A stretch of 64,000 nucleotides of DNA from an uncultured Thermotogae bacterium (GTDB lineage Bacteria > Bipolaricaulota > Bipolaricaulia > UBA7950 > UBA9294): assembly GCA_964447445.1 (NCBI GenBank), contig CAYUSW010000065.1:1106-65105 (forward strand), given 5' to 3'. Below are positions 4,848-59,847 of this stretch, one piece after another (position 1 is the stretch's first letter; every line of letters starts with the position of its first letter). A program made the position numbers and the translations under genes. Under the pieces are notes generated by a model, which saw only the letters and a list, made by a program, of their open reading frames with translations, was not told the origin of the DNA and searched no databases.

Positions 4848-4915
4848 GCGGGCGACCGGCCGGAGCGGGTTGGCTCGTCGAACGGGTTCAATCCAGCCGG
4901 CCGGTCGAAGCCCGC
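4848..4915. repeat. long imperfect hairpin (16-bp stem GCGGGCGACCGGCCGG / CCGGCCGGTC-gaa-GCCCGC around a 33-nt loop) inside a 357-bp intergenic spacer
   Basis: The inverted repeat is read directly from the sequence. It is followed by a pyrimidine tract (ctctcctctctccc) rather than a U-tract. Confidence 0.35.
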
Positions 4916-5043
4916 TGCGCCTCACGCTCTCCTCTCTCCCTAACCGGGGCATCACCCGCTTGCGTAGGCCGAGCGCATTTCGCAGAATGTTCGCGCCTTG
5001 CAGTGAAGACGGGATGCCCTGCGCAGCGTGAAGCGAGGGGAGG

Positions 5044-6960: not shown

Positions 6961-6979
6961 GGCCTTAACTCGCGAGAGT

Positions 6980-9091
6980 ATGAGCCGGCTGTTCAACCCG
7001 CGGGGCGTGGCCGTGGTCGGGGCCTCCACAAATCCGAACAAGATCGGATACCGCATCGTGGAGAACATGGTCAAGTCGGCGTACACGGGCCGGATCTACC
7101 CTATCAATCCCAAGGGGGGCGAGATCCTTGGGTGGAGCGTGCACCGCAGCCTCGCGGACGTGCCGGGAGATGTCGACGTCGCGGTGCTGTCCGTGCCCGC
7201 GGACCATGTACTGGGAACGGTCGCGGAGTGTGCTGCCAAGGGCGTTCGCCATCTTGTCATTGTCACGTCCGGCTTCTCCGAGATCGGCAACATGACGCAG
7301 GAGAAGGAGATCGTCTCAATGGCGCGCTCACATGGGATGCGCGTTCTTGGGCCCAACATCTTCGGGATCTACTCCGCGTCGAGTCGACTGGATGCCACAT
7401 TCGGCCCGGGAGGCATCCTCCCGGGACACGTTGCGATCATCACGCAGAGCGGCGCGCTGGGCATTGCCATGATCGGCAAGACGGCGGCGGAATCGCTGGG
7501 CCTGTCGGCCCTCGTCTCGGTGGGGAACAAGTCGGACATCGATGAGGCGGACCTCCTGACGTATCTGGCCGAGGACCCGGAGACTCGCGTCGTTCTCCTC
7601 TACATCGAGGGAGTCAAGAACGGGGAACGGCTGGTAAAGACGCTCAAACAGGTCACACGACGCAAACACGTCGTCGTCATCAAGTCGGGGAGATCGGCGC
7701 GGGGAGCCATGGCGGCCGCGTCCCACACGGGATCCCTGGCGGGGGCCGACGACGTGTTCGACGACATCATGCGCCAGTGCGGGGTCTTGCGTGCGGAGAG
7801 CGTACAGGAAGCGTTCAACTGGGTTCGCTATCTCGCGACGGCGCCGCTCCCTTCCGGCGAAGATGCCGTGATCGTCACGAACGGTGGAGGGATCGGGGTG
7901 CTGGCGACGGACGCCTGCGAGAAGTACGGGGTCCGTCTGTACGACAACCAGCCGGTCCTGGCGGAGTCTTTCGCGGGAGTGATGCCGGAGTTCGGCTCGT
8001 CGAAGAACCCGGTCGACCTCACCGGGCAGGCAACAGGGGACGACTACGCCCGGGCGCTCGACGCCGTGTTCGCTCGGTCCGACATGCACGCCGCGGTGGC
8101 CCTCTACTGCGAGACGGCTCTTTTCGACACAGCGCAGTTTGCGGCGTTGCTGCGAACGATCCACCGACGCTACAAGGAAGTGAAGCCGATTGTCTTCGCC
8201 CTATTCGGCGGGGAGCGGATCGAAGCGATGATCCGCGAGCTGCGGTCGGAGGGAGTCCCCGTGTTCGGCGATGTCTACGAGGCGATCTCGGTCCTCGGGG
8301 CGCTCTACCGGTCGAGGCGGCGCTTCGCCGAGGGGAGCGAGGACGAGCCGGCCATGTCCGACATCGATGTGGCGAGGATTCGCCGCGTCCTTGAGAACGC
8401 GGGCGCGGAAGGGCGCCGGTTCCTGCTTGCGCACGAGGCCGCGGACGTGGCGGCGGCGCTCGGCCTTTGCATGCCGCGCTCCATCCTGGGTCGGGATCTG
8501 GACGAGGCAGTGCGCGCGGCGGAGACGATAGGGTATCCCGTCGTCATGAAGGTCGTGTCGCGAGACATCATGCACAAGAGCGACGCGGGGGGCGTGGCCC
8601 TGAACCTGGAGAATCGGGACGAGGTGGTCGACGCGTACCAGGCGATCCTCCAGAGTTGTCTGCGCTACAAGCCTGATGCATCGATTCAAGGTGTGGAGGT
8701 CGTGGAGATGGTTCGGCCCGGAGTGGAGACGATCGTCGGCGCGCGTCAGGACCCGTCGTTCGGCCCTGTGGCGATGTTCGGCCTCGGCGGCATCTACGTG
8801 GAAGTTATGAAGGATGTGTCATTCCGCGCGGCGCCGGTCGGGGCGCGCTTGGCACGCGAAATGATCGGGAGCATCCGGTCGTATCCCCTCTTACTCGGAG
8901 TGCGAGGCGAGCGGAGAAAGGACATCGGAGCGGCGGCCGACGTGATCATGCGCCTCGGACAGCTGATTTCGGAATGCCGGGAGATCACTGACATCGAAGT
9001 GAATCCCCTCATGGTTTACGACTATGGGGAAGGGGCCAAGGCCGTGGACGTGAGGATCCTGTTCCATACCCAAGGGGGTGACGCAGCGTGA
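6980..9091 (+). CDS. acetate--CoA ligase (ADP-forming) family protein (fused CoA-binding/succinyl-CoA-synthetase-like alpha + ATP-grasp beta domains)
   Basis: The N-terminal CoA-binding domain (LFNPRGVAVVGAS...KIGYRI) and the C-terminal ATP-grasp region match NDP-forming acyl-CoA synthetases. Start taken at ATG 6980, just after the upstream stop at 6960; the ORF track's 6923 start would overlap. Confidence 0.8.
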   Translation: MSRLFNPRGVAVVGASTNPNKIGYRIVENMVKSAYTGRIYPINPKGGEILGWSVHRSLADVPGDVDVAVLSVPADHVLGTVAECAAKGVRHLVIVTSGFSEIGNMTQEKEIVSMARSHGMRVLGPNIFGIYSASSRLDATFGPGGILPGHVAIITQSGALGIAMIGKTAAESLGLSALVSVGNKSDIDEADLLTYLAEDPETRVVLLYIEGVKNGERLVKTLKQVTRRKHVVVIKSGRSARGAMAAASHTGSLAGADDVFDDIMRQCGVLRAESVQEAFNWVRYLATAPLPSGEDAVIVTNGGGIGVLATDACEKYGVRLYDNQPVLAESFAGVMPEFGSSKNPVDLTGQATGDDYARALDAVFARSDMHAAVALYCETALFDTAQFAALLRTIHRRYKEVKPIVFALFGGERIEAMIRELRSEGVPVFGDVYEAISVLGALYRSRRRFAEGSEDEPAMSDIDVARIRRVLENAGAEGRRFLLAHEAADVAAALGLCMPRSILGRDLDEAVRAAETIGYPVVMKVVSRDIMHKSDAGGVALNLENRDEVVDAYQAILQSCLRYKPDASIQGVEVVEMVRPGVETIVGARQDPSFGPVAMFGLGGIYVEVMKDVSFRAAPVGARLAREMIGSIRSYPLLLGVRGERRKDIGAAADVIMRLGQLISECREITDIEVNPLMVYDYGEGAKAVDVRILFHTQGGDAA

Positions 9092-15775: not shown

Positions 15776-16630
15776 TCATCCGCGAATCGTTGTCGCCGCG
15801 CGCGGGAGCGCCAGAACCTCGTCCGCAGTGAGACCCTGGTCCGTGACCCATCGCTCTACCTCCAGGGTGCGAACGCGGCGCTCGACCTCGAAGTAGACGA
15901 TCTTCTGGATCAGGTACGTGGTGCGATCGATCCATAGAGTCTCCGTCAATCGTCCGGACTCCGCCTCGCGCACTTCGATGACGTAGCTTCCGTGAAGCGG
16001 ATCGGAAGCGCCGGTCGATGGAGGCGCAGCAAACCCGGTCAAGTCCGGACCGAACGTTGCCGTCGAGTCCGAGGCCAGTGGAAGCGAATCGTCGAGCGGC
16101 GTGCCGGCCAGCGTCTCGGCGAGCGGAACGCTCTCGGCGAGGGTGCTGGAGGCGAGACTCGCGCTGGCATCCAGAATACGCGCCTGCACAAGGCCCTGCT
16201 GCCAGCGGGCCCGGAGGAGAGACACATCAAGCCCCGCGAGTCCCACAGCGGCCAACGGAACTCCCGTCCAACGCCGTACGATCAGGAGGTCCGCTTCTGG
16301 CACGTAGTGCGACAACAGGTCGCGGTCACTCGTCACGACGTGCCCCGCCATGCTTTGCGGTTCCGTGTATCGCACGGACAAGGCCGGCGTGGGGCTGATG
16401 ACCACCTGGACGACCATGCGCACGGTTTGTGGGATGTCCCCGTACTCCGTGGATGCCAGCGAGATCTCCACGTCTTTCGCGCGGCTGAGGGTGTTCTCCA
16501 CGCGCCAGAGGAGGCCGCCCACTTCAGAGACGGGATGCTCGGAGAGGAGGTAGTGATCCACAGCAGCCGCGGCGACGACGAGAGAAGCGAACAGCCCCAC
16601 CGCCAGAAGTACGAAACCTTGCCCGGTCAT
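15776..16630 (-). CDS. membrane-anchored hypothetical protein (N-terminal TM helix, periplasmic/extracytoplasmic domain)
   Basis: The N-terminal hydrophobic segment FVLLAVGLFASLVVAAAAV is followed by a soluble domain of unknown function. Confidence 0.45.
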   Translation of the reverse strand: MTGQGFVLLAVGLFASLVVAAAAVDHYLLSEHPVSEVGGLLWRVENTLSRAKDVEISLASTEYGDIPQTVRMVVQVVISPTPALSVRYTEPQSMAGHVVTSDRDLLSHYVPEADLLIVRRWTGVPLAAVGLAGLDVSLLRARWQQGLVQARILDASASLASSTLAESVPLAETLAGTPLDDSLPLASDSTATFGPDLTGFAAPPSTGASDPLHGSYVIEVREAESGRLTETLWIDRTTYLIQKIVYFEVERRVRTLEVERWVTDQGLTADEVLALPRAATTIRG

Positions 16631-20890: not shown

Positions 20891-21279
20891 GCGGGCGGAA
20901 GAACGCGCGACTTCGCGAGGACATCCAACGGGTGCTGTCTGGAATTCTGGAGTTCGAGAGCCGCGATCCGGTGGTTCGGGAGGCTTTCCCCACGCTGATG
21001 GATGTCCGCCTTTCGGTGGACGGTCGCTACGCCAGGGTCTACGTGGCGGTCGCGGGCGATGTTCGCCGCGACGATGTGGAGAAGGCACTGATGCAGGACC
21101 GTGGCTTCTATCGGAGCATGTTGGCGGAGCGCCTCGCGCTGCGCCACACTCCGGAACTCCGATTCGTCCTCGATGAGACGGTCGAGCGATCCCTGCGGCT
21201 CGGGGATCTGCTTCGCGAGGACGAGGCGAACGTGCTGCGAGAGGGTGAACCCGAAGCGAGCGAGGATGGGACACCATGA
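20887..21279 (+). CDS. rbfA: ribosome-binding factor A
   Basis: The RbfA KH-like pattern (RLREDIQRVLSGIL...RVYVAV...GFYRSMLAERLALRHTPELRF) is present. Its start overlaps the upstream stop. Confidence 0.85.
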   Translation: MSGRKNARLREDIQRVLSGILEFESRDPVVREAFPTLMDVRLSVDGRYARVYVAVAGDVRRDDVEKALMQDRGFYRSMLAERLALRHTPELRFVLDETVERSLRLGDLLREDEANVLREGEPEASEDGTP

Positions 21280-23006
21280 ACCGGGATCTGGAGATCGCGC
21301 GCTCGGTCGTGCCGCGGCCCATTGCTGAGATTGCGGCGAACCTGGGCCTGCGTGGAGACGAACTCATACCCTTCGGGGACGTCATGGCCAAAGTGCGGCT
21401 GTCCGCCTACGTCGACCGCCGTGAGCGGCCGGACGGCAAGTACGTGGATGTGACGGCCATCACGCCGACGCCGCTCGGCGAAGGCAAGACCACGACGACT
21501 CTCGGCCTTGTGCAGGGTCTGGCTTGTAGGGGGAAGCGCGCGGTGGCGTGCATCCGGCAGCCGTCGCAGGGTCCGACGTTCGGGATCAAGGGAGGAGCGG
21601 CGGGCGGTGGGCACGCCCAGGTGATTCCGATGGAGGATCTGAACCTTCATCTGACGGGCGACTTCCACGCCGTCACCGCTGCCCACAATCTGATCGCTGC
21701 GGCGCTCGATGCCCGGCTGTTCCACGAGCGGGACTTCAGCGACGCCGGCTTGGCGGGTCGTGGACTCCGACGCCTTCACATCGATCCGCAGGGCGTTGTG
21801 TGGCACAGGGTGATCGACACGTGCGACCGTGCGCTGCGTAACGTGGTTGTTGGCCTGGGGGCGAGAGGGGACGGCATCCCGCGGCAGTCGGGGTTCGAGA
21901 TTACCGCGGCGTCGGAACTCATGGCCTGCCTTGCGCTCGCCGACGATCTTGCCGATCTCCGACGGCGCATTGGGCGAGTGATCGTCGCCTACTCGGTCGA
22001 CGGGAGCCCGGTGACCGCCGAGGATCTCGGAGTGGCCGGAGCGGCGGCTGTGCTGATGAAGGAGACGGTGCACCCGACCCTCCTGCAGACGCTCGAGGGG
22101 CAGGGCGTGTTCGTCCACGCGGGTCCATTTGCCAACATTGCGCATGGCAACTCGTCGGTCATCGCGGATCGCCTCGCCCTCAAGCTGGCCGACGTTGTCG
22201 TCACCGAGTCCGGATTCGGCGCGGACGTCGGAATGGAGAAGTTCTTCGATATCAAGTGCCGGGCGAGCGGGCTCTTTCCCGATGTGGTCGTGCTGGTGGC
22301 TACCGTTCGCGCCCTCAAGATGCACGGCGGCGGACCGCGCGTGTCGCCTGGGAAGCCTCTTCCGGAGGCGTACACCCGCGAGGACCTGCGACTTCTCGAA
22401 GCGGGTCTGCCGAACCTGATGCATCACCTCGGGATCGCGCGGAAGTTCGGTGTCCCTTCGGTGGTGGCGGTGAACCGGTTTCCCGAGGACACTCCGCGCG
22501 AGCTGGACATGGTGTGTCGCGCGGCTCGCGGAGCGGGCGGAGCGGCCGTCGTGGCCGATCACTGGGCAAGGGGCGGCGAAGGGGCGATCGATCTTGCCGA
22601 CGCCGTCGGCGACGCGTGGCGCGCAGAGAAGTCGCCCAGGTTCCTCTACCCGCTGGACCTCCCGCTGCGAGAGAAGATCGAGACGATCGCCCGGGAGATC
22701 TATGGCGCGGGGAGCGTCCTCTACGGCGAAGGGGCTGAGAGGGACCTCGAACGCTGCGAGCGACTCGGCTACGGCAAGCTTCCCGTGTGCATGGCGAAGA
22801 CCCATCTGTCTCTGTCGCACGACCCCTCTCTGAAGGGAGCTCCGCAGGGGTTCACGCTTCCGGTGCGCGAAATCCGCGTCAGTGCGGGCGCCGGCTTCGT
22901 CTATCCGCTGTGTGGCGCGATGCAGACCATGCCCGGCCTTCCGGCTCGTCCGGTGTTCATGGGCATCGACCTCGATCCCGAAGGCGATGTGAGAGGCCTT
23001 TCGTAG
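21276..23006 (+). CDS. fhs: formate--tetrahydrofolate ligase
   Basis: PTPLGEGKTTTTLGL P-loop. 576 aa collinear with FTHFS. Confidence 0.9.
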   Translation: MNRDLEIARSVVPRPIAEIAANLGLRGDELIPFGDVMAKVRLSAYVDRRERPDGKYVDVTAITPTPLGEGKTTTTLGLVQGLACRGKRAVACIRQPSQGPTFGIKGGAAGGGHAQVIPMEDLNLHLTGDFHAVTAAHNLIAAALDARLFHERDFSDAGLAGRGLRRLHIDPQGVVWHRVIDTCDRALRNVVVGLGARGDGIPRQSGFEITAASELMACLALADDLADLRRRIGRVIVAYSVDGSPVTAEDLGVAGAAAVLMKETVHPTLLQTLEGQGVFVHAGPFANIAHGNSSVIADRLALKLADVVVTESGFGADVGMEKFFDIKCRASGLFPDVVVLVATVRALKMHGGGPRVSPGKPLPEAYTREDLRLLEAGLPNLMHHLGIARKFGVPSVVAVNRFPEDTPRELDMVCRAARGAGGAAVVADHWARGGEGAIDLADAVGDAWRAEKSPRFLYPLDLPLREKIETIAREIYGAGSVLYGEGAERDLERCERLGYGKLPVCMAKTHLSLSHDPSLKGAPQGFTLPVREIRVSAGAGFVYPLCGAMQTMPGLPARPVFMGIDLDPEGDVRGLS

Positions 23007-23080
23007 CAGGTTCGAGCATTCGGATGCCCGGATGGGCTTGCGTGTTGCCTCCGTGGCCGTCGAGGAGTATGGTCAGCGCG

Positions 23081-24535
23081 ATGAGAAACCAAGAACAGAT
23101 CGACGTTCGGGCGTTGTTCGCGCTGCACCCCTTTGCTCGAGTCATCCTCGAGCGGCTATCCGCCGCCGGACACGAGTCGGTGCTGATCGGTGGCGTTGTC
23201 CGCGATGGCTTGCGCGCCCTCTGGGGGGAGGATGTGGACTACCCGCCAGCGGACGTGGACATTGCCACCGCGGCCCTTCCGGCGGAGATCCGATGGCTCT
23301 TTGACGGGCACCCCATTGTCGGCGTGGGCGAGGAGTTCGGCGTCATCATCATCGTCGCGCCCGACGGGCGTCCCTACGAGGTTGCGACGTACCGCGTCGA
23401 GGGGGAGTACGACGGCCGGTGGCCGGGCCGCGTCGAGCTTGTCCGCGATCTGGCGGGCGACGTTCGCCGGCGAGATCTCACGATCAACGGATTGGCCGCG
23501 ACCGCGGACGGGCGGGTCATCGATCTTGTCGGGGGCGTCGATGACCTCAAGGCGAGGCGCATCCGGGCGATCGGAGATCCAGCCATTCGCTTTGGCGAGG
23601 ATTACCTGCGCATGCTGCGGGCAGTCCGTTTTGCGTGCCAGATCGACGGAGAAGTCGAACCGTCGACCGCGGAAGCCATTGCGGCGCACGCCGGAAAGCT
23701 CGCGGCCATCTCAGGGGAGCGGGTGCGCGATGAGGTCCTGCGACTGCTCGGCACGCCGCGTGCGTGCCGCGGCGTCAGACTCCTCGACGAGCTCGGGCTA
23801 CTACCGGAAATCTTGCCGGAGCTGTCGGCTGGGAAGGGAGTGGCCCAGCCGGAGATCTACCATCCGGAGGGCGACGTCTTCGAACACACCCTTGAGGCCT
23901 TGCGCATAGCGGACCTCTTCATCCGCGATCCCCTCGTGAAACTGGCGGTGCTTCTTCACGACGTGGGGAAACCACAGGCCCTCGAAAGAAACGAGGGAGC
24001 GAACATGGGCGGGCACTGCGCGCTGGGAGCATGGCAGACCAAGCGAATCGCGCAGCGCCTACGGCTGAGTCGGGCCGACGCCGGGAGGCTCGTCTTCGCC
24101 GTCAAGAACCACATGCGGATCGCTGACTTCCCCGAGATGGGAAGAGGCAAGCAAGTGCTCTTCCTCACGGAAGGCGAAGTCCAGGGCGCGCGATGCTTCG
24201 CGGAGCGCTACCCGCGGTTCTTCGAACTACTCCAACTCCTCGTCGCAGACTGCGAGGCCAGCGCGCACCGAGCGGCGGGGTGGGAGCCGATCCTGGTGGA
24301 GACCCTGCGGGTGGTCTTGCACGTCGAGCGAGTGGGCGACGTGCGTCGGGCGCGCGAGCTTGTGGACGGTCACGATCTGAAGGAGCTGGGGATGCCGGAC
24401 GGGCCGGACATGGGTCGACTCCTCGACGTGCTCCACGATCGCATCCTGGCTGGCGAGATCACGTCGCGGGCGGAGGCCATAGAGACGGCACGGGGCCTGC
24501 TCCGGACCCGGCAGGGGACGCTCGGGGGGCAGTGA
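23081..24535 (+). CDS. cca: CCA tRNA nucleotidyltransferase (class II, with C-terminal HD domain)
   Basis: Pol-beta nucleotidyltransferase head (LIGGVVRD...DVDIAT...RDLTING) and an HD segment (LLHDVGKP). The track ORF begins inside fhs. An in-frame ATG at 23081 or 23069 is the likely start. Confidence 0.8.
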   Translation: MRNQEQIDVRALFALHPFARVILERLSAAGHESVLIGGVVRDGLRALWGEDVDYPPADVDIATAALPAEIRWLFDGHPIVGVGEEFGVIIIVAPDGRPYEVATYRVEGEYDGRWPGRVELVRDLAGDVRRRDLTINGLAATADGRVIDLVGGVDDLKARRIRAIGDPAIRFGEDYLRMLRAVRFACQIDGEVEPSTAEAIAAHAGKLAAISGERVRDEVLRLLGTPRACRGVRLLDELGLLPEILPELSAGKGVAQPEIYHPEGDVFEHTLEALRIADLFIRDPLVKLAVLLHDVGKPQALERNEGANMGGHCALGAWQTKRIAQRLRLSRADAGRLVFAVKNHMRIADFPEMGRGKQVLFLTEGEVQGARCFAERYPRFFELLQLLVADCEASAHRAAGWEPILVETLRVVLHVERVGDVRRARELVDGHDLKELGMPDGPDMGRLLDVLHDRILAGEITSRAEAIETARGLLRTRQGTLGGQ

Positions 24536-24634
24536 CGGGACAGGCGACCCCTGGGAATTGACCCGCCCCCTGTACCTTCTCCCTGCGCCGCGGGCGGCAA
24601 CGAGTGCGGGTTCCGCGGGACGGGCAGGGGGAAG

Positions 24635-26167
24635 ATGGGGACGCCACTCAGCATCAGCAGGGACCTTGAGCTCGACCTCGAAACCCTCATTGGGCAATGC
24701 ATTGCGATCCTGGGGATCCGGGGATCCGGCAAGTCAAACACCGCGGGGGTCATCTTCGAGGAGCTGCTCTCGAACAACTACCCCATGTCCATCGTCGACA
24801 TCGAGGGAGAGTACTTCGGATTAAAGGAGAAATACGAAGTACTGGTGGTCGGCACGGGAGACGGGGTGGAGATCGAGATCGACGCCGGGTGCGCGGCGGA
24901 GATCGCCGAGGTCAGCATGGAGAAAAACGTCCCGGTCGTTCTCGACCTCAGCGGGTTCCTCTCGGACGAAAGGAACGAACTGCTGATGGAGTACCTCTCC
25001 AGCCTCTGGAACCTGGCGGGCACCCTCCGGCGTCCCTACATCATCGGAATCGAAGAGGCGCACGAGTTCATACCGCAGGGCGTGAAGACCGAACTCAAGG
25101 AGATGATCGCCCGCATTGCACTGCGCGGCCGCAAGCGCGGCTTGGGGGCTATCGTTGTCTCCCAACGCAGCGCGAAGGTGGACAAGGACGTGTTGAGTCA
25201 GGCTGGCATGCTGCTCCTGCACCGCGTTGTTCACGAGGTCGACATGCGGGTGTACAGCGAGCTTCTTCCGTGGCGGAAGAGCGAGGTGAAAGAGATCATC
25301 GCGTCGCTGGAAACCGGGAACTGCATTTTCGTGAACGGCGAGATCGTCCGTCCGATCTACGTACGCGAACGTGCGACGTTCCATGCGGGGTTCACTCCGT
25401 CACTCGAGGCCGTGGCGACGCCTGAACTGAAGCAGGTGAGCGCCTCTATCATTGAAGCGATCGAACGAGCGCGCGAGGGTCGCGGACGCCGAACGCGGGC
25501 CCAGGAACTCGAAGAGCAGCTTTCCAGAATGCAGGAGAGGGTAGCGGAGAGAGACCAGAGGATCGCCGAACTGGAGGAGACAGCGCGGACGCTGGGGTAC
25601 ATCAAGGTCGAAGTCCCGCAGCCCGCGCCGACGATCGTCACTCAAGATCCCCTGCCCCGAGCTGCCGCGGACGCCGAGTTCGTTTCCGAATCACCGAGTT
25701 CGGCGCGGCGCGACCTTGTGGAGGCCAGAGCCGCGGCGCGCGAACGCGTTGCAGCGGAGACTGGGTGGGGGGTCATCGAGGTCGCACAGCCGGGGCCGAC
25801 AGCGGCCGGCCTTCCTCCGGCCGTCGGGCGGCACATCGACCGCCTCGTGGCTCGGGTGGAGCGCCGAAGTCTGTTGGAGCGCCGCGTTCTGGCGTTTCTC
25901 GTCGAGCACGCTCCCGGCTCGTACACCGCGTCGCAAATCGCCGCGTGGACCAACTGCGCACGAGAGATGATCGAAGACGAGCTGCCGCAGGAACTCCTTG
26001 AGGCGGGGCTGATCGCCCGCGAGAGGAGAACGGACGGCTTGCGCTTCCAGAGCCGACTCCGAACGTTCGTCAGCAGCGAGTTCGCCGTCTACCTTCCGGA
26101 TATTGGCGAGAGCGGCCTGCATGCAATAACCCGCCAGCTCTCAGATCGACTCGTGCGCATTCCCTAG
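24635..26167 (+). CDS. DUF87 (HerA/FtsK-superfamily) P-loop ATPase with central coiled coil and C-terminal winged-helix domain
   Basis: Walker A ILGIRGSGKSNT and the DUF87-type DIEGEY motif are present, with Walker B-like hhhhEEAHEF. Residues about 265-320 are heptad-rich (RAQELEEQLSRMQERVAERDQRIAELEE). The C-terminal about 90 aa resemble a MarR/TrmB-like wHTH (RRVLAFLVEHAPGSYTASQIAAWT...). Confidence 0.6.
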   Translation: MGTPLSISRDLELDLETLIGQCIAILGIRGSGKSNTAGVIFEELLSNNYPMSIVDIEGEYFGLKEKYEVLVVGTGDGVEIEIDAGCAAEIAEVSMEKNVPVVLDLSGFLSDERNELLMEYLSSLWNLAGTLRRPYIIGIEEAHEFIPQGVKTELKEMIARIALRGRKRGLGAIVVSQRSAKVDKDVLSQAGMLLLHRVVHEVDMRVYSELLPWRKSEVKEIIASLETGNCIFVNGEIVRPIYVRERATFHAGFTPSLEAVATPELKQVSASIIEAIERAREGRGRRTRAQELEEQLSRMQERVAERDQRIAELEETARTLGYIKVEVPQPAPTIVTQDPLPRAAADAEFVSESPSSARRDLVEARAAARERVAAETGWGVIEVAQPGPTAAGLPPAVGRHIDRLVARVERRSLLERRVLAFLVEHAPGSYTASQIAAWTNCAREMIEDELPQELLEAGLIARERRTDGLRFQSRLRTFVSSEFAVYLPDIGESGLHAITRQLSDRLVRIP

Positions 26168-26214
26168 AAGAGTCCTTGTCCAGGGCGAGGCGAGCATCCT
26201 CGGACCTCCCACCG

Positions 26215-26243
26215 TTGACCGGTCTCTCTTTTTCTGTCATAAT
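26215..26243 (+). promoter_or_regulatory. sigma70-like promoter (TTGACC-17 nt-CATAAT) for hpf
   Basis: Read directly from the sequence. A GGAAGGGGGAG ribosome-binding site precedes the hpf ATG at 26264. Confidence 0.5.
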
Positions 26244-26263
26244 CTCGTTGGAAGGGGGAGCCG

Positions 26264-26791
26264 ATGAAGATCAAGATCGCTGAGCGACACGGTCATGCAG
26301 AGTCAAGTCAGGCTTTGCGGGCGTACGTCGTCGAGAAGACGGAGGCGCTCGAGCGGTTCTTCGACCGAATCGTCAGTGTGGACGTCGTCTTGTCGTCAGA
26401 GAAGGAGCGACAGATCGCCGATCTCCACGCACACTTGACGAACAAGAAGCTCATCACGGCGCGCGAGGAATCCACGGACATGTACGCATCCGTCGACAAA
26501 GCCGTGGACCGGCTCCGCCGCCAACTGGTGAAGTTCAAAGACCAGCTTGGGGACGTGAAAGTGCGTGGCGGCGGAGGAGGCGAGCCGGATCGCGGAGGGG
26601 GCGGCGGCGAGAGGCAGATCATCAGAACCGAAACCCACTTCTACAAGCCGATGACGCCCGAGGAGGCGTCGCTTCAGCTGGAGGCGATTGAGAAGGGCTT
26701 CCTCGTGTTCATTGATGCGGAGACCGACGAAGTGGCGATCATCTACCACCGCCGGGACGGCAACTATGGCCTGATCGAGCCGCGACGATAG
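26264..26791 (+). CDS. hpf: ribosome hibernation-promoting factor (long HPF/RaiA type)
   Basis: N-terminal RaiA/YfiA fold, a Gly-rich linker (GGGGGEPDRGGGGGE) and a C-terminal dimerisation domain. Confidence 0.85.
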   Translation: MKIKIAERHGHAESSQALRAYVVEKTEALERFFDRIVSVDVVLSSEKERQIADLHAHLTNKKLITAREESTDMYASVDKAVDRLRRQLVKFKDQLGDVKVRGGGGGEPDRGGGGGERQIIRTETHFYKPMTPEEASLQLEAIEKGFLVFIDAETDEVAIIYHRRDGNYGLIEPRR

Positions 26792-26828
26792 CGCGGAGCG
26801 CTGGGGGAGGGAGGAGTCGGGGTAGGCG

Positions 26829-27881
26829 TTGGCTAAGGTTCTCGTTTTATTCTCGGGCAGTCTGGCAAGTCGCGTTGCGGCGGCGCTTGTGTTGCACCAT
26901 CCTGGTGTGCACTCCATACAGCTCCTGCACTTCCGGTCCCCGTTTGCCTCGGAGACGGAGGAGCTGCGGGAATTGGTCCGCGAGGAGTGGCCCGGAACCG
27001 TCTTCCGTACCCAGTCTCTCAAGCGGGAGTACCTGAGGTTCGTCGAGCCGGACGCTGCGCAGTTCTCGCTTCGGCAGGCGTGCCTTGAGTGTCGAGCCTT
27101 GCTCGTCTCGCGCTCGGTTCGGTACATGGCGCGCGTGGGTGCGGACTTCCTGGCCACCGGCGAACGTCTGGGACGGCATGGTTTGGGCCGCGAGGAGATG
27201 GATTGGCTGGCTGCGCGATATGATGTTCAGAGCCGTATCCTCCGGCCGCTGTGCTTCCGGGCCGGGCACGGGGACTGCGATCTTGAGGGGTGGGGCCGGC
27301 TGGGTGGCCCCCGGGCGATCCACGCCATGGACGACGAAGACCTGGCGAGGCTGGCGACATCGCTTCATTTGAGCTCGTCGAATCGAATGGGGTCGTGTGG
27401 CCGCTGCAAGCTCACGGTGCCCGGTTTCGGCGAGCGGGTCGCCAATCTGTTCGCGGAGGAGGGGTTCACGCTGAACGGCCTGCGGCTCCTCGATTTCTCG
27501 CACTACTACAAGATCGAGCCCTGGGCAAAGGTCGTAGTTGCCGTCGGAGACGAGGAGAAGCGCGAGCTCCAGAACTTGTTCCTTCCGCAGGACCTGCGCG
27601 TGTATCCGGCCACGCCGCATGGCCCGATGGCGCTCGTGCGAACGGACTGGGGAGCAAGAACAGCCGCAGAGAGGACGCGGATCCTCGAGCTGGCAGCGTG
27701 CATCACGGCAACCCACACGAGCGGCGGACGATGTACGTCGGTGCCCATCTACTACCGCCTCGAGAGTGACGACGAGACGCTTCTCCTGCACGCGAAGGCG
27801 TTTCGATCCACCGACGAGCTTCTCGAGATCCCGGGCGTTCAAGCGATGACGCTCGTGGCGGCAGCACCTGCGGCAGCTTGA
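26829..27881 (+). CDS. PP-loop (ThiI/MnmA-like adenine-nucleotide alpha-hydrolase) superfamily protein with degenerate P-loop, plus C-terminal domain of unknown function
   Basis: VLVLFSGSLASRVAA occupies the position of SGGxDS, with Gly->Ser, Asp->Ala and Ser->Ser changes. ATGERLGRHG resembles the ThiI ITGESLGQ motif. There is no THUMP or rhodanese domain. Confidence 0.45.
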   Translation: MAKVLVLFSGSLASRVAAALVLHHPGVHSIQLLHFRSPFASETEELRELVREEWPGTVFRTQSLKREYLRFVEPDAAQFSLRQACLECRALLVSRSVRYMARVGADFLATGERLGRHGLGREEMDWLAARYDVQSRILRPLCFRAGHGDCDLEGWGRLGGPRAIHAMDDEDLARLATSLHLSSSNRMGSCGRCKLTVPGFGERVANLFAEEGFTLNGLRLLDFSHYYKIEPWAKVVVAVGDEEKRELQNLFLPQDLRVYPATPHGPMALVRTDWGARTAAERTRILELAACITATHTSGGRCTSVPIYYRLESDDETLLLHAKAFRSTDELLEIPGVQAMTLVAAAPAAA

Positions 27882-27886
27882 CAGCG

Positions 27887-27914
27887 CGAGCCCGGAGGCT
27901 ATACTCCGACCAAC
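27887..27914 (+). promoter_or_regulatory. sigma70-like promoter (TTGACA-16 nt-TATACT) for the FmdB-rpoC transcription unit
   Basis: Perfect -35 hexamer and a near-consensus -10, read directly from the sequence. It is followed by an about 115-nt leader that contains a small hairpin (CCCTA-cgaggac-TAGGG). Confidence 0.5.
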
Positions 27915-28036
27915 CAGTCTGAACAAGGGATGCGCGGCTTCGGAACGGAGCGTCTGTTTATTCCGCGATCGCGTTTCATGAGAGTAGAGTCAAGAGACCG
28001 TGGTGCTAGCCCTACGAGGACTAGGGCGGGGCAGTT

Positions 28037-28276
28037 ATGCCTTTTTACCGCTTCGAGTGCGCAAGTTGCGGGAGCGAGTTCCGTGTGTTGCGACAAAACG
28101 GCGATGTGGCTCTGGCGACGTGCCCGCACTGCGGCGGCGGCCAGACGAAGCGGCTTCTTCCCCGGATCGGCGTGATCTACAAGGGCAAAGGGTACTACTC
28201 CACGGACTACCGCAAGACCAAGAGTGAAAGCGCGCTGCGCGACTCGGCGGAGTCGACGACGGGAACCGAGAACTAG
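28037..28276 (+). CDS. FmdB-family zinc-ribbon protein
   Basis: MPFYRFECASCGSEF...CPHCGG is the CxxC...CxxC FmdB signature. 79 aa. Confidence 0.8.
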   Translation: MPFYRFECASCGSEFRVLRQNGDVALATCPHCGGGQTKRLLPRIGVIYKGKGYYSTDYRKTKSESALRDSAESTTGTEN

Positions 28277-28331
28277 GGCAAACGGAGCGGCCGCGCGGCG
28301 CAGCTCGGCTGCCACGGAAGACTAAGGAGAG

Positions 28332-31300
28332 GTGAGGCAAGTGATTGCCGGCGATGACATCCGTCGCATAAAGCTGCAGCTGGCTCCACCGTCGGTGATT
28401 CTCGGCTGGTCGCACGGAGAGATCACGGAGTCCGAGACGATCAACTACCGAACGCATCGGGCGGAGCGGGGCGGCTTGTACGCCGAAGAGATCTTCGGGC
28501 CCGCCAACGACTACGAGTGCGCGTGCGGCAAGTACAAGGGCAAGAAGTACGAGGGGATCACGTGCGAGAAGTGTCACGTCCTCGTCACAGACTCATCGGT
28601 TCGGCGCGTCAACATGGCGCACATCCAACTGGCCAGCCCCGTGGTCCACTTCTGGTTCCTCAAGGGGGTGTCCAGCCTTCTCAGTCGTCTCTTGGGGTTG
28701 AAGCGCCGCGAGCTCCAGCGGATCGCGTACTACGAGACCGAGCCCCTTGAGCAGGCTCTCTACATCGTCACGACGTCCGGAAGCAAGGAAGTGCGGCCAG
28801 GCGAGTCGCTGTATGCGTCCGAACACGCGATCCTGTCCCAGGCGTTGACCTTCGAGGTGGAGCCCGCATACTACCTCGACGAAGCCCCCCGCGTTCTCGC
28901 GGAGGAGGGTGGGCGAGTCACGATCGAAGAGCGGCAGCTGACGAACGGCGAGCGCATTCGCTCGGTCATCATCGGGAGTCAGGAGTACCCGATGGTGGGC
29001 GAGGCCGAGATCATGCTCGAGGACGGCGACGAGGTGGAAGCGGACACCGTGATCGCCGAGCGTCCGGTGGGCGAGATCTGCTCGAAGACAGCCTACGACA
29101 TGCTGGTGGACCGCTACGGCGCGGTCACGGGAGAGCCGCTCGATCGAGAGGTGCTGGACAGCTTGGCGTTCATCGTGACGCAGATCAAGGATCGCGACAT
29201 CCCCCTCTCGATCGGAGAGCGGCTGACCTATCTCGAGAAGCGCGCGTACGAACGCATCTATCCGGACGGCTTCGCGGCCGAGACAGGCGCCGCTGGAATC
29301 AAGGGCATTCTCCAGTCGCTCGACGTAGAGGAGCTCTACGCGTCTCTCACTGAAGAGCTGCGCCAGGAGACGAGCATCGGCAACCAGCGGCGACTCATGA
29401 AGCGGCTCGAGGTGGTGGATCAGTTGCGGCGCTCCGGCAACAACCCGCAGGACATGATCCTCGATGCGGTTCCGGTTCTTCCACCCGACCTGCGCCCGAT
29501 GATCCAGCTTGAGGGCGGGAAGTTCGCTACGACGGACCTGAACGACCTCTACCGCCGAATCATCAACCGGAACAACCGCCTCAAGAAGCTGGTCGACATG
29601 GGTGCTCCGGAAGTGATCCTGCGGAATGAGCGACGGATGCTGCAGGAAGCGGTCGACGCCCTGATTCACAACGAGAAGAAGGAGAGCCCGATTCGGGGGC
29701 GCGACAACCGCCCGCTCAAGTCGTTGTCCGAACGGATCCACGGCAAGCACGGTCGGCTGCGTCGCAACCTGCTGGGTCGTCGCGTCGACTATTCGGGACG
29801 TGCCGTCATCGTTGTCGATCCGAAGCTGAAGCTGGCGCAGTGCGGGATTCCGAAGAAGATGGCGCTCGAGCTGTTCAAGCCGTTCATCTTGCACTACCTC
29901 GAGACGACGACGTTCTCCGACTTCGACGAGATCAAGAATCGTGCCCTCATGGGCGAGATGCCCGAGGTGTGGGACATCCTTGACAAGCTCATCAAGAAGC
30001 ACCCGGTGCTTCTCAACCGCGCCCCGACGCTCCACCGGCTCTCGATGCAGGCGTTCGAGCCGATCCTGGTGGACGGCGAGGCCATTCATGTCCACCCCTT
30101 GGTGTGCCCGCCCTACAACGCGGACTTCGACGGCGACACGATGTCGGTGCACCTTCCGCTTTCTCCCGAGGCCATCGCGGAGGCACGGGAACTCATGGCG
30201 GCGCCGCGCAACATCCTCTCGCCGTCGAGCGGCGAGCCCATCACGTTGCCGACGCAAGACCCGATCTTCGCCTTCTACTTCCTGACCCTCGAGGAGCCTG
30301 AGGGGAAGGGGAAGGGGAAGGCATTCCGCGACATCGACGAGGCCCAAAGAGCCTTCGAGACAGGAGCCCTAGGACTGCACAGCCTGGCGAAGATCCGCAT
30401 CGACGGACAGATCGTCGACACCACTCTAGGTCGCGCCGAGGTGAACCGAGTCCTTCCCGAACCGATTCGCGACTACAGCCGCGTCATTGACCGGCGGACC
30501 GTGAAGAAGATCGTCATGCGCTGCTTCCACGAGTACGGCTGGGAGAAGACAGCCGAGGTCTTGGATGATCTGAAGGACCTTGGGTTCAAGTATGCCACGT
30601 ATGCCGGCCTCACGATCTCACTCAAGGACTGCCTCATCCCCGTGGAGAAGACTGGCATTGTTCGCGAGTCCCAAGCCGCCGTGCTGCGCATCGAGACCAT
30701 GTTCAAGATGGGGCTGTCCACGGAGGAGGAGCGCCGCGACGCGGTGATTCGCATCTGGCGGCGCACGGTGGATGACGTGGAGCACGCCACGATGGAGAAC
30801 CTGCGTCAGCACCTGTTCAACCCCGTGTATGGAATGGTCATGTCTGGCGCGCGGGGAGGTCCGGACCAGGTCAAGCAGCTCTGCGGGATGCGGGGACCCA
30901 TGGCGGGTCCGTCGGGCGAGATCATCGAGAGGCCCGTCATCTCGAACTTCCGCGAAGGGCTGGACATGATGGAGTACTTCATCTCCACCCACGGCGGGCG
31001 CAAGGGCGCGGCGGACACGGCGCTGAAGACGGCCGACTCGGGCTACCTGACCCGGCGCCTCGTGGACGCGTCGTCCGACACGATCATCCGTGCGGTCGAC
31101 TGCGGGACGACGCAGGGTGTGGAGATTGATCCCCTACGGTTCAGCAAATCGGAAACGATGGAGGCGATTGAAGAGCGCATCTACGGGCGAGTCACCGCGT
31201 CGCCCGTGATCGACCCGTCAAGCGGTGACGTGGTCGCGGATGCCAATCAGTGGATCACGCAGGAAATGGCCACACTGATCGGCCAGATGGAGTGCGAGCT

Positions 31301-33309
31301 GTCCACCGCGAGCGCGGCCGACCGCGAGCGCATGATCGGTGCGAAGAGCCTGCACGACGTCAAAGAACCTCGCACCGGGCGAGTGATCCTGAGGCAGGAC
31401 GAGATGCTGACAGCGCGTCTCGCGGAGACCCTGCGCGCGGCGAAGATCAAGAAGATTCAGGTGCGGCCCCGCGTGGTGATCCGCTCCGCGATGACTTGCG
31501 AGTCAACCGGAGGAGTGTGCCAGCTCTGCTACGGATATGACATGAGCAGCCATCAGCCGGTCGCGTTGGGGACGGCCGTAGGGGTCATCGCGGCGCAGTC
31601 TATCGGAGAGCCCGGCACGCAGCTGACGATGCGCACGTTCCATCTGGGCGGCGTTGCTGGAGAAGACATCACGCAGGGACTGCCTCGTGCCGAGGAGCTG
31701 TTCGAGGCGCGGAAGACGCCGAAGGAGAGCGAGGCGGGAATCTCACCGCTGGACGGGTTCGTCACCAGCGTCGTGTCCACGGAGACAGGACACGACCAAG
31801 TGGAGATCACCGGAGAGCCGCGGGACATCCTCGTGCCGGCAGGAATCCTCAAAGCCGAAGAGGGTGACGAGGTCGCGACCGAGGACCTGATTCGTACGAA
31901 GAGCCCGTGCAAGCGAGGTCTACATCCTGCGCGCCGACGATGGCAGCCAGGAACTCCTGCTGCTGGATCCCGCGAGCGGCGACCGATCGTACACCATCCC
32001 GCGCGGAGCTACGGTCAAGGTTGAGACCGGCGATGTCGTCGAGGCGAAAGATGCCCTAACGGACCGCTTCAACGTGGAACCGGTCGTTGCGACGCGGAAA
32101 GCAAAGGTCGAATTGTCCGAAGAGAACGACAGGGTGTTCCGACTCGTGTTTGGCGAGGGAGACGTGGTCGAACACGAGATCCCCTACGGCGGCCGACTGC
32201 TCGTGGAGCCGGGGCAGACCGTGCAGGCGGGGAAAGCCGTCACATCGCGCTCGAAGCCCATCTTCGTCGCTGCGGAGGGTGAAGGGACTGCCGTCGTCTT
32301 GGACGATCGGATCCTCGTGTACAACCCGGAGGGAGGACTGCGGATTCCGCTCACGGCAGACATCTCGTCCCTGAAGGGGCACGGGGAAACCGTGCGCGCC
32401 GGCGAGCCGCTCGTCCGGCTCGAGGTGCCGCACGTCGGCGAGGTGCGCGTGGAATCGATCGAGATCCATGGCGAAATCGCCAAAGTGAGAATCGAGCCGA
32501 AGAGCGTGGTGACGATCGACAAAGCAGTCACGGTACGCGTGGGCGACAAGATCGAAGAGGGAGACCTGTTAACCAAAGGGATCGTGGCGCCGCACACGGT
32601 GCTCGCGGCTGCCGGCGTTCAGAAGGCCCGTCAGTACCTCTTGACGGAGATCCACAAGGTGTACAGGCAGCAAGGCGTGGACATTAACGACAAGCATCTC
32701 GAGGTGATCATTCGCCAGATCCTGAACAACGTGCGGATCATGGACAAGGGTGACTCGCGCTTCCTGCTGGGTGATCTCGTCACGCTGGAGGAGTTCCGCA
32801 AGGAGGTCAAGACTCTGGCTCTGTGGAACCAGGAAGCGGACAAGACGCGCGCAGAGGCGCTGAGTCTTCCCCTGGCGGAAGATGTGACCGTCGATGACCA
32901 AATCGCGGCCCGGAGCGGAGAGCCTCTGACGGCCCTCGTGTTGGCAACGGCCAGGAGGGCGAAGATCGACGTCGTCCGGGTCGTGCGGGACGAGGAGGAG
33001 GTCGAGGTCCCCGTCGCGGAGAAGCGGCTGCCTGCCGGCGACCGCGAGCTCTTGAGGATCTCGAAGGCGGCCTTGCAGACGAAGGGGTGGCTCTCCGCCG
33101 CGTCGTTCCAGCGAACGACGAAAGTGCTCGCCGAGGCGGCGCTGCGCGGCGAGACCGACGAACTGGAAGGGCTGAAGCCGAGCATCATTGTGGGAAAACG
33201 GATCCCCGCTGGGACGGGCTTCCGGCCCCTCGTCAGCGCGGGGGTGCCTGCCGGCAGCGCCGACGTGCCCGCAGCCGAAGAGCCGGCGGATGACGAGGAT
33301 TCTGCGTAG
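28332..33309 (+). CDS. rpoC: DNA-directed RNA polymerase subunit beta-prime, with an apparent frameshift near 31.90 kb (two ORF pieces 28332-32024 and 32074-33309)
   Basis: Zinc-binding motif CxCGKYK..C.KC, NADFDGD active site, trigger loop/bridge-helix regions and the C-terminal ...[12 protein letters not shown] are all present. The reading frame changes between about 31895 and 31912. The downstream frame read back to about 31903 continues beta-prime sensibly ([18 protein letters not shown]...). The start is GTG 28332 or 28341, after an AAGGAG ribosome-binding site. Confidence 0.85.
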
Positions 33310-41913: not shown

Positions 41914-42447
41914 ATGCTGCTACATGAGAGGTACGTCCAAGAGATCGGCCCGCGACTTCAAGCGGAGCTGGGCATCTCGAACGTGATGCAGGTTCCGCGA
42001 ATCGTCAAGGTCGTCGTCAACATGGGGGTTGGCGACAAGGACAACCCCAAAGTCCTGGAGGGGGCGGTCCAGAACTTGGCGAAGATGACGGGGCAGCGGC
42101 CCGTGGTGACGAAGGCGAAGAAGTCGATCTCCGACTTCAAGCTCGTCATCGGAGATCCGATCGGGTGCCGTGTGACGCTGCGAGGCACGAGGGCCTACGA
42201 GTTCCTCAACAAGCTGTTCAACGTCGTGCTGCCGGGGATACGCGACTTCCGGGGGCTCTCGGCATCGGCGTTCGACGGGCGAGGCAACTATAGCGTCGGC
42301 CTCTCCGAGCAACTGACGTTCCCTGAGATCGAGTACAACGAGATCGTGAAGACTCAGGGAATGGACATCACGATCGTAACGACCGCGCGCGACGACCGCG
42401 AGGGCTATGTGCTCCTCAAGGCGTTGGGATTCCCGTTCAACGACTAG
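41914..42447 (+). CDS. rplE: 50S ribosomal protein L5
   Basis: L5 signature present. Start ATG 41914, right after the L24 stop. The track's 41884 start overlaps L24. Confidence 0.92.
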   Translation: MLLHERYVQEIGPRLQAELGISNVMQVPRIVKVVVNMGVGDKDNPKVLEGAVQNLAKMTGQRPVVTKAKKSISDFKLVIGDPIGCRVTLRGTRAYEFLNKLFNVVLPGIRDFRGLSASAFDGRGNYSVGLSEQLTFPEIEYNEIVKTQGMDITIVTTARDDREGYVLLKALGFPFND

Positions 42448-42456
42448 GGGGCAAGG

Positions 42457-42642
42457 ATGGCGAGGAAAGCGCTGATCAACAAGACGAAGATGACGCCCAA
42501 GTTCCCCGTCCGCAAGTACCATCGCTGCAATCTGTGCGGGCGACCTCACGCCTTCATTCGGGACTTCGGACTGTGTCGGCTTTGCTTCCGCAAGCTCGCC
42601 CACTTGGGTGAGATTCCTGGAATCAAGAAGGCGAGTTGGTAG
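42457..42642 (+). CDS. rpsN: 30S ribosomal protein S14, type Z (zinc-binding)
   Basis: 61 aa with CxxC...CxxC (CNLCGR...CRLC). Confidence 0.93.
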
Positions 42643-42648
42643 GAGGGC

Positions 42649-43056
42649 ATGATGATTCCTTATCCGATTGGCGACATGCTGACGCGGATCCGTAATGCGA
42701 ACTCGCGGCTCCACGACGGCGTGACCATGCCGCACTCGCGGCTGAAAGAGGCAGTGGCGCAGATCCTGCTCGAGGAAGGCTACGTGGAAGCGTACGAGAG
42801 GATTGATGGGGTTCCTCAGCCCCAGCTCCACATTCAATTGAAGTATCGGGGCGAGCGGAACCGCGCGCGGCGAGCGATCAGCGAGATCCGCCTCGTCAGC
42901 AAGCCCAGCCGGCGAGTCTACGTGGGTCGGGACGAGATCCCTCAGCCGCTGGGGGGAATGGGAATCTGTGTTGTGTCCACCTCGCAGGGAGTGCTTTCGG
43001 GCAAGGATGCGCGCGCGCGCGGACTCGGTGGCGAAGTGCTGTGCGAGGTTTGGTAG
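42649..43056 (+). CDS. rpsH: 30S ribosomal protein S8
   Basis: S8 signature (DMLTRIRNA...). Confidence 0.93.
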   Translation: MMIPYPIGDMLTRIRNANSRLHDGVTMPHSRLKEAVAQILLEEGYVEAYERIDGVPQPQLHIQLKYRGERNRARRAISEIRLVSKPSRRVYVGRDEIPQPLGGMGICVVSTSQGVLSGKDARARGLGGEVLCEVW

Positions 43057-43068
43057 GGTGATGCTGCG

Positions 43069-43620
43069 ATGTCCAAAGTAGGCAAAGTACCAGTGGCAGT
43101 CCCAAGCGGCGTGAAGGTAACCGTCGCCGGAGGGACGTTCAGCGTGGAAGGCAAGCACGGCCGGCTCTCGCAAGCGTATCGGCCGGACATGGTGGACATC
43201 GTCGTAGCCGATGGCACAGTGCGTGTCTCCCGCCGCAAGGAAGGCAAGGAGTATCGCGCCTACCACGGCCTCTATCGAAGCCTGCTGGCGAACATGGTCA
43301 GGGGCGTGTCGGAGCGATGGGAGAAGCGCCTGATCATCAAGGGCCTGGGCTACCGCGCGCGTCTTCAGGGGAACACGATCACTCTCGACCTTGGATACGC
43401 GGGGCCGAAGGAGTACGAACTCGCGGCGGGTATTGAGGCCGAACTGCCGAACCCGACGGAGATCATCATCCGGGGCGCGAGCAAGCGGGACGTGGGCCAA
43501 GTGGCGGCGGAGATACGGCGCCTGCGGAAGCCCAACGTGTACGACGGGAAGGGCATTCGCTACAAGGACGAGATTGTTGTGCAGAAGGCCGGGAAGCTCG
43601 GCGGTCAGGGCGCCGCGTAG
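43069..43620 (+). CDS. rplF: 50S ribosomal protein L6
   Basis: L6 two-domain pattern and operon position. Confidence 0.92.
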   Translation: MSKVGKVPVAVPSGVKVTVAGGTFSVEGKHGRLSQAYRPDMVDIVVADGTVRVSRRKEGKEYRAYHGLYRSLLANMVRGVSERWEKRLIIKGLGYRARLQGNTITLDLGYAGPKEYELAAGIEAELPNPTEIIIRGASKRDVGQVAAEIRRLRKPNVYDGKGIRYKDEIVVQKAGKLGGQGAA

Positions 43621-43632
43621 GGAGAGTGGGCG

Positions 43633-43998
43633 ATGGCAAAGATGACGAACCGTGCTGCCGAGCGCCAGAAGCGACACCGTCGCCTTCGAAGGCGCATCGT
43701 GGGATCGAGCGAGCGGCCGCGCTTGTGTGTGACGAAGACATTGAGACACTTCTATGTTCAGATTGTGGACGACAAGGTAGGGGCTACCCTCGTCCAGGCG
43801 TCAACCCTCGACGGCGAGCTGCGCGGCGAGGTTGGCGGGCCGAACCGAACAGCCGTTCTGAAAGTCGCGGCGAAGCTGGTGGAGCGAGCGTCTCAGGCAG
43901 GGATCAAGCGAGTTGTGTTTGACCGCGGAGGATACCCGTACCACGGTGTGGTGTCGGCCTTTGCTGAGGCCTGTCGGGAGGGGGGGTTGGAGTTTTGA
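43633..43998 (+). CDS. rplR: 50S ribosomal protein L18
   Basis: L18 signature (RPRLCVTKTLRHFYVQIVDD...VVFDRGGYPYHGVV). Confidence 0.93.
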   Translation: MAKMTNRAAERQKRHRRLRRRIVGSSERPRLCVTKTLRHFYVQIVDDKVGATLVQASTLDGELRGEVGGPNRTAVLKVAAKLVERASQAGIKRVVFDRGGYPYHGVVSAFAEACREGGLEF

Positions 43999-55533: not shown

Positions 55534-55992
55534 CTAGGGCTCGGCGGGCGGCGGAGCGGTGAGGGTCGTCTGCCAAGTAAACGTGTACGACGTCCCGTTG
55601 ACGGTGTGCGTTCCGACACCGGACATCGTCGTGGGCGTGACCCGACCGTCGAAGGAGAACTCCACGACGGCCGGCGGCGGGACGAGGTCGTTCGTGCCAG
55701 AGGCCTCGAGGACGACCGTATCTGCGTGGATCTCGGCGCGCGTGATGGGAAGCTGGTACTCCTTCATGCCGGGGCTCGGGAAGGATGCGGTGCCGGTGAT
55801 CGTCCCGTCGCTGCTCTGGAGATCCATCCTGAACGAGCCCGTGATTCCCATCACATGGCCGCTCGTGTACGTGAACGTGCCCCTCCATCTGCCCGTGACA
55901 TCCATGCGCATCACCGGCTGGCAGCCAACGACGCAGGCGAGGAGAACGAATCCGAGGCGACAGAAGAGCGCAAGACGGAGCTTGTTCGACAT
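55534..55992 (-). CDS. lipoprotein of unknown function
   Basis: MSNKLRLALFCRLGFVLLACVVGC is a signal peptide with lipobox-like Cys residues. 152 aa. Confidence 0.5.
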   Translation of the reverse strand: MSNKLRLALFCRLGFVLLACVVGCQPVMRMDVTGRWRGTFTYTSGHVMGITGSFRMDLQSSDGTITGTASFPSPGMKEYQLPITRAEIHADTVVLEASGTNDLVPPPAVVEFSFDGRVTPTTMSGVGTHTVNGTSYTFTWQTTLTAPPPAEP

Positions 55993-56183
55993 CGACAAGG
56001 CAACCACCCAACGCTCATTCTGCGGCCTCGCTGCACGCGGCAGAGGGAACCCTGGGCCGGGCTGTCCGGACATGCGCGCCGTGACAGGGAAGGACGCTGG
56101 ACACCTCGCGGCGGGCGAGGGGGGAAGCGGATCCGATGGGCGCCCTCCTCGGCCTCGTATAATGTCCGGCGGGGGAGAGAGTC

Positions 56184-59502: not shown

Positions 59503-59847
59503 TTGATGGCCGATCGTCTCTATGAGCGAATCTACGATGTGGTGCGCCACGTTCCGAGAGGGAGAGTGGCTACGTACGGAGCCATTGCGCGGGCGGTGGG
59601 GATGCCGCGGGGTGCGCGTCAAGTAGGCTACGCGATGGCGGCGCTGGGTCGCGGGCAGCCGAGGCCTGACGTTCCGTGGCATCGCATTGTCAATGCGAAG
59701 GGCGAGTCAAGCATCGGAGACGAACAGATCGAGCGACTGCGCGCTGAGGGGGTCTCGTTCGGGCCGGACGGACGCATCGACCTCCGAGTCCACGCCTGGG
59801 ATGAAGTCGCCGGCGAAGGATTCGAACAGGAAGGGCTGTTCGGGTGA
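59503..59847 (+). CDS. alkyltransferase-like protein (ATL; MGMT DNA-binding domain with PWHRIV in place of the PCHRV active site)
   Basis: MGMT helix-turn-helix/Arg-finger region (YGAIARAVGMPRGARQVG) is present. The active-site Cys is replaced by Trp (PWHRIVNAKGE), the hallmark of non-catalytic ATL proteins. Confidence 0.75.
   Translation: MMADRLYERIYDVVRHVPRGRVATYGAIARAVGMPRGARQVGYAMAALGRGQPRPDVPWHRIVNAKGESSIGDEQIERLRAEGVSFGPDGRIDLRVHAWDEVAGEGFEQEGLFG

Follow-up and report, generated by a model that had tools for sequence, protein, structure and literature searches.

The β′ subunit of bacterial RNA polymerase is encoded by rpoC, a gene which is essential and normally present in a single copy. 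Splits of the large subunits of the enzyme are tolerated in non-conserved regions, as exemplified by cyanobacterial rpoC1/rpoC2, by the archaeal A′/A″ pair and by the in vitro split-site work on E. coli β′. The natural splits of β′ are lineage-wide, are located elsewhere in the protein than the break described below, and come with a regular stop, a signal in the intergenic region and a start codon. A different way of expressing an essential gene across two frames is that of prfB (RF2), in which a +1 frame change is needed for the full-length product and the site, conserved across bacteria, combines a slippery CUU U with an in-frame UGA and with a Shine-Dalgarno-like stimulator located upstream. 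Finally, reports on long-read assemblies describe frameshifting indels through which genes take on the appearance of pseudogenes (PMC12007338, PMC9262707).

In the present study we have analysed a 64-kb stretch of DNA from an uncultured bacterium of the Bipolaricaulota (hereafter the window), in which rpoC is one gene broken by a change of frame. The first open reading frame (ORF) of rpoC starts with a GTG at 28332 on the forward strand and remains open to 32024, its translation giving 1230 aa, and the +1 frame has no stop between 31891 and the one that closes it at 33309. The Pfam families PF04997, PF00623, PF04983, PF05000 and PF04998 are matched across the two ORFs, the first of them covering Rpb1 domains 1-4 and the beginning of domain 5, trigger loop included, and the +1 frame containing the C-terminal part of domain 5 (PF04998). 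The Rpb1 domains 1-5 are thus found in order, together with the trigger loop and with the conserved regions at the C-terminus that define a β′ subunit; as assembled, they do not form a single uninterrupted frame collinear with the orthologues, and they do so only once a GG dinucleotide is restored.

Codons 1-1194 are read in the correct frame at 28332..31913 (+), as established by Pfam and tblastn, and end in LIRTKSPCK, with Lys-1194 (AAG, 31911-31913) being the last correct residue in frame 0. The wrong-frame tail of the first ORF follows at 31914..32024 (+) and is formed, on translation, by 36 residues (31914-32021) and a TGA stop (32022-32024). This 36-residue peptide was found in none of the homologues, which read KGEV(Y/L/F) at that point. 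True β′ resumes in the +1 frame at Glu (GAG, 31915), and the C-terminal 464 codons plus the stop occupy 31915..33309 (+), according to tblastn with orthologues, Pfam and mapping to Thermus β′. The first canonical start in this frame, a GTG, opens a 411-aa ORF in the ORF list (32074..33309, +) that a gene caller would give as the second fragment, and the position of this GTG corresponds to an internal Val (FNVEP) in the intact relatives. An earlier note on this DNA had described rpoC as disrupted near 31900, with the +1 frame carrying the true C-terminus to 33309, and both statements agree with the reading frames and with the orthologue matches given below, which extend to or near the C-termini. 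The note was right in seeing wrong-frame residues before the stop at 32024, although these number 36 and not about 40, KSPCK being true β′; similarly, the +1 continuation that it proposed is real, although it starts at Glu 31915 and not at about 31903, and the AS that it had read before EVYIL belongs to no real protein.

In order to pinpoint the lesion, as that note had advised, we aligned the locus with β′ homologues and compared it by DNA with seven Bipolaricaulota/Acetothermia relatives, which comprise the contigs of the closest ones, L001 and L002 (~82% nucleotide identity over rpoC), and five GTDB metagenome-assembled genomes, L003-L007. In tblastn, five full-length orthologues (1662-1666 aa, with a partial one of 1058 aa in addition) each match the window as two segments, in frames 3 and 1, that meet within 31909-31925, with an overlap of a few residues for L004. 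The first segment runs from orthologue residue 1 to ~1191-1199, ending at nt 31910-31925 with 74-81% identity, and the second one from residue ~1193-1201, at nt 31909-31915, to or near the orthologue C-termini with 60-67% identity. The repetition of this two-segment pattern in five orthologues indicates that it is not a chance arrangement of ORFs. A three-way nucleotide alignment of rpoC from the window, L001 and L002 contains one window-specific gap of 2 nt, in the G run at ~31912-31914, where the window reads TGCAA--GCGAGGTC, L002 reads TGCAAAGGGGAAGTC and L001 reads TGCAAGGGAGAGGTC.

The lesion is a loss of 2 nt between 31913 and 31914 (+), the missing GG being positions 1-2 of an invariant Gly codon, so that the window has TGC AAG C GAG GTC in place of the TGC AAG GGC GAG GTC of L003. 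Around the site, the sequence of L003, TGCAAGGGCGAGGTCTAC, differs from that of the window only in this GG, and in all four of L004-L007 the Gly codon likewise begins with GG. The loss of 2 nt has the same effect as shifting the frame by +1, and re-insertion of the GG yields a β′ of 1659 aa, with no stops and collinear with the 1662-1666-aa orthologues, in which the repaired SPCKGEVYIL can be aligned with the relatives at every column, the Gly being invariant. The single-base indel at 31895-31912 that the earlier note had postulated is consequently replaced, on the alignment with the seven relatives, by a 2-nt deletion just outside that range.

All seven relatives (L001-L007) are in frame at the site of the lesion, and the protein homologues P0001, P0009 and P0027 read through it and keep the Gly. 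The best protein match to the region spanning the break is P0001, with 81% identity, and the matches are labelled Candidatus Acetothermia or Bipolaricaulia; a scan of genome collections gave relatives at 63-69% identity among the matches listed. The same species as that of the window was found in none of the collections searched, exact-protein look-ups of the window's proteins gave no match, and an exact-pattern scan of metagenome contigs, allowing the gap at the site, gave 0 matches. A literature search on rpoC frameshifts in Bipolaricaulota returned nothing relevant. Regarding the labels of these sequences, P0027 is a β′ fragment of clear Bipolaricaulota type deposited at NCBI as 'Rhodoglobus sp.' on a contig of 1,046 nt, and the Bipolaricaulota-type rpoC loci L003, L005 and L007 belong to genomes that bear the titles Thermotogota or Thermotogae; wrong taxonomic labels or bin contamination are the probable reasons.

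The rpoC genes of the two closest contigs are themselves interrupted by single-base insertions, which leave that of L001 (ENA ERZ25039527, contig_7042; rpoC at 2376-7347) in 4 pieces and that of L002 (ENA ERZ25039477, contig_8772; rpoC at 2231-7200) in 2 pieces. None of these insertions, four in L001 and two in L002, is at the position of the window's lesion. In addition, fusA is fragmented in both contigs (8281-9930 in L001 and 8997-10215 in L002), and the L4 gene call of L001 has only 110 aa and is apparently truncated. The different positions of the breaks, together with the broken fusA, point to independent indel errors in error-prone assemblies, of the type typical of unpolished long-read assemblies, and not to a conserved break. 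A lineage-wide frame break, to which the C-terminal fragments P0018 (448 aa) and P0025 (399 aa), encoded on these two long contigs, might have pointed, was rejected because L001 and L002 are broken at other positions. A conserved split before the trigger loop, considered in view of many database matches of ~565-600 aa, was also rejected, these proteins beginning at assorted internal Met residues (MSNH, MRTFH, MTCET, MENLR); most of them come from short contigs, and they look like truncated gene calls.

As in the relatives, rpoC is followed in the window by an rpsL-rpsG-fusA-S10 operon and is immediately preceded by HPF, an NFACT-R_2-like gene and a small ORF. The region upstream of rpoC (21276-28331) contains FTHFS, a CCA-adding/HD enzyme, a DUF87 (HerA-like) ATPase, HPF, the NFACT-R_2-like protein and the small ORF, which in L001 is a Zn_ribbon_8 protein. 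The several large ORFs in this region had been considered as a fragmented rpoB, which was rejected since the genes from FTHFS to the NFACT-R_2-like one are intact. In the window rpoB is not adjacent to rpoC, and the same immediate upstream order is found in L001 (1-2375) and in the 2230 nt of L002 (1-2230), as far as these sequences reach, so that this clade appears to have lost the customary linkage of rpoB and rpoC.

The lesion is the only frame-breaking indel in the 4,978 nt of the window's rpoC when aligned with L001 and L002, the other gaps being either multiples of 3 or the insertions of those relatives themselves. The ratio between the amino-acid identities after and before the break is 0.78-0.82 for the window against L003-L007 and 0.77-0.82 among these intact relatives, a normal value, meaning that constraint is not relaxed downstream of the lesion. 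No sign of decay was found in the gaps, the conservation ratio or the position of the gene, and no second rpoC copy is present within the 64-kb window. An old inactivated copy of rpoC is disfavoured, given the lack of further lesions, the normal downstream conservation and the usual place of the gene before rpsL-rpsG-fusA.

The rest of the window was evaluated through ORF selection and Pfam/orthologue coverage, which replaced a GC3 frame plot that was too noisy for the detection of other frameshifts. Pfam profile coverage or tblastn with orthologues was examined for some 58 other genes, none of which shows a frame break, the intact genes including those for EF-G, IF-2, SecY, RpoA, GlmS, hydantoinase A and B, HypD, HypE and 22 ribosomal proteins. 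Coverage is full-length in nearly all; a phosphodiesterase and L3 show only partial coverage of the Pfam profile, and L3 is full-length against its orthologues. Homopolymer runs of at least 4 nt are frame-consistent in 453 of 453 cases (87 of them of at least 5 nt) over 54.4 kb of validated coding sequence. Among these ~58 genes and 453 runs there is no other indel error, and a systematic homopolymer problem is not evident in the window's assembly. Since rpoC is the longest gene of the window (~8% of it), one random event landing there is unsurprising. A 609-aa ORF at 41920-43749 (-), opposite the intact genes for the ribosomal proteins L5-S14-S8-L6-L18, is a shadow ORF, as is to be expected in DNA of 65% GC, and not a gene. 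Five sizeable candidate ORFs, with tentatively assigned strands and frames, have no Pfam match, at 58-1401 (+), 2701-3342 (-), 15776-16630 (-), 55534-56073 (-) and 59687-61075 (+).

The position of the break in the protein was examined with phmmer against the β′ chains of the PDB, which gave E = 2e-70 to Thermus β′, aligned over 1193-1292, 1308-1395 and 1407-1478. The β′ of this clade has ~1660 aa and carries, over window 31700-33000 (residues ~1160-1560), insertions relative to Thermus β′. The first of these, lineage-specific and of ~237 aa, is located in the jaw between Thermus residues 1292 and 1308 (query residues 106-342 versus Thermus 1293-1307). The break lies ~36 residues into this insertion, and everything that matches Thermus β′ 1308-1478 is downstream of it, 31915..33309 thus holding most of the jaw insertion and the conserved C-terminal regions. 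Weak matches to Apocytochr_F_C and Biotin_lipoyl suggest that the insertion may be formed by barrel-sandwich-type domains, and a further insertion of ~76 aa is found between Thermus 1395 and 1407.

Among the explanations that take the break as a biological feature, one would have full-length β′ restored by ribosomes programmed to shift frame by +1 (or -2), or by slippage during transcription. Its only point in favour is that, as in prfB, the full-length product of an essential gene depends on a +1 frame change, which here would have to take place within 31891-32024. The site nevertheless reads CCG TGC AAG CGA GGT and is devoid of the slippery, stop and stimulator elements of prfB, as it has no slippery sequence (neither X XXY YYZ nor CUU U nor a homopolymer), the reading frame meets no stop there, and inspection by eye of the bases just upstream revealed no stimulator of the Shine-Dalgarno type; the 90 nt downstream (31916-32005) fold no better than shuffled sequences (z = -0.30). 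Furthermore, TGC AAG CGA GGT gives the P-site tRNA no +1 re-pairing, CGA is not a rare codon (11.3 per 1000 codons), there is no A or T run on which RNA polymerase could slip, and any product would be made without the invariant Gly. The shift is also unconserved, being absent from all the relatives, which encode the site in frame; a programmed event, one of the causes contemplated by the earlier note, is barely credible and, by this lack of conservation, already close to refuted. Were the deletion real and fixed, β′ might alternatively function in two pieces divided within the jaw insertion: the N fragment would comprise 1194 aa and a tail of 36 aa, and the C fragment would arise by re-initiation downstream, for instance at GTG 32074. 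The arrangement in two consecutive ORFs, with the break outside the universally conserved blocks, does recall cyanobacterial and plastid rpoC1/rpoC2 and archaeal A′/A″; the insertion is non-conserved and lacking in Thermus β′, and the downstream part is intact and conserved. Unlike in those systems, however, the two rpoC ORFs of the window overlap out of frame and 36 junk codons are read; the junction has neither a start nor a ribosome-binding site, and in all the relatives the gene is unsplit at this point. From 31891 onwards, the +1 frame has its first canonical start codon at 32074, a GTG that is 160 nt past the break and has no Shine-Dalgarno-like sequence before it (the upstream sequence reads CCCTAACGGACCGCTTCAAC-GTG), and in a C fragment starting there the insertion domain would be short of 53 residues. 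The deletion also abolishes the invariant Gly, and the locus bears no mark of adaptation to a split, be it a new start, a ribosome-binding site or a shortened tail. A functional β′ in two pieces is thus very improbable, and it is hardly to be expected that the deletion has become fixed and that the RNA polymerase is assembled from a newly arisen natural split of β′ at a site unseen in other lineages.

A 2-nt deletion that is real but very recent or unfixed, whether as a variant in part of the sampled population, in non-viable cells or in amplified DNA, or else a young pseudogene backed up by another rpoC at a different place in the genome, would be compatible with the absence of decay and with a window that is otherwise indel-free, where the local error rate seems low; the loss of 2 nt at a 3-nt run is also unlike the classic homopolymer miscall. 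This possibility is at odds with the essential and normally single-copy character of rpoC and with the absence from the truncated product of the C-terminal regions matching Thermus β′ 1308-1478. The copy is moreover in the conserved place before rpsL-rpsG-fusA, as in all relatives, with no other lesions in its 4,978 nt and no second copy in the 64-kb window. We consider it unlikely, and a very recent or unfixed real variant less likely than a sporadic consensus error. We assign a probability of roughly 0.8 to a sporadic 2-nt deletion arising at consensus, polishing or assembly as the origin of the break. This origin is an inference, in contrast to the exact position and size of the lesion, its absence in the relatives, the lack of recoding signals and of decay, and the integrity of the rest of the window, which are shown by the sequences. 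The Gly codon or residue is kept in the DNA of the seven relatives and in P0001, P0009 and P0027, the gene is otherwise intact and conserved, and the same kind of indel is found at other positions of rpoC in the public assemblies of L001 and L002. One small indel at a short G run giving two adjacent, overlapping ORFs is also what is seen with frameshifting indel errors in draft and long-read (meta)genome assemblies. In contrast to the typical 1-nt miscall in a long homopolymer, the window has lost 2 of 3 G's, which is not the commonest kind of error, and, unlike error-prone assemblies, it is very clean elsewhere (~58 genes intact); both points count against an artefact. Considering all of this evidence, the frame break is almost certainly one of the sequence as given and not a biological feature, and we judge that the earlier note was right in regarding a trivial error as the most likely cause, the gene being intact otherwise and the relatives in frame.

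Thus, we propose that this Bipolaricaulota/Acetothermia bacterium would possess an ordinary, single and functional rpoC, of which the assembled sequence would be a version minus two G's. The intact form of the site would be AAGGGCGAG, in which AAG GGC GAG would have been converted into AAG C GAG at 31913/31914 by a sporadic consensus, polishing or assembly error at the short G run. The loss of the GG would put the last 464 codons in the +1 frame and make a gene for 1659 aa look like two ORFs of 1230 aa and 411 aa. In the real cell, full-length β′ would be made with no recoding and no splitting of the subunit.

If the deletion were real and fixed, the locus would be a rare natural case of a newly split essential subunit of RNA polymerase, for which the sequence gives no support. 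With respect to annotation, the ORFs 28332-32024 and 32074-33309 should be merged into a single rpoC that carries a flag for the 2-nt frameshift at 31913/31914, as they may otherwise be wrongly read as a truncated β′ and a hypothetical protein, or be counted as a pseudogene in analyses of genome quality or gene loss. Since rpoC is a common phylogenetic marker, the repaired 1659-aa sequence is the one to be used for phylogeny.
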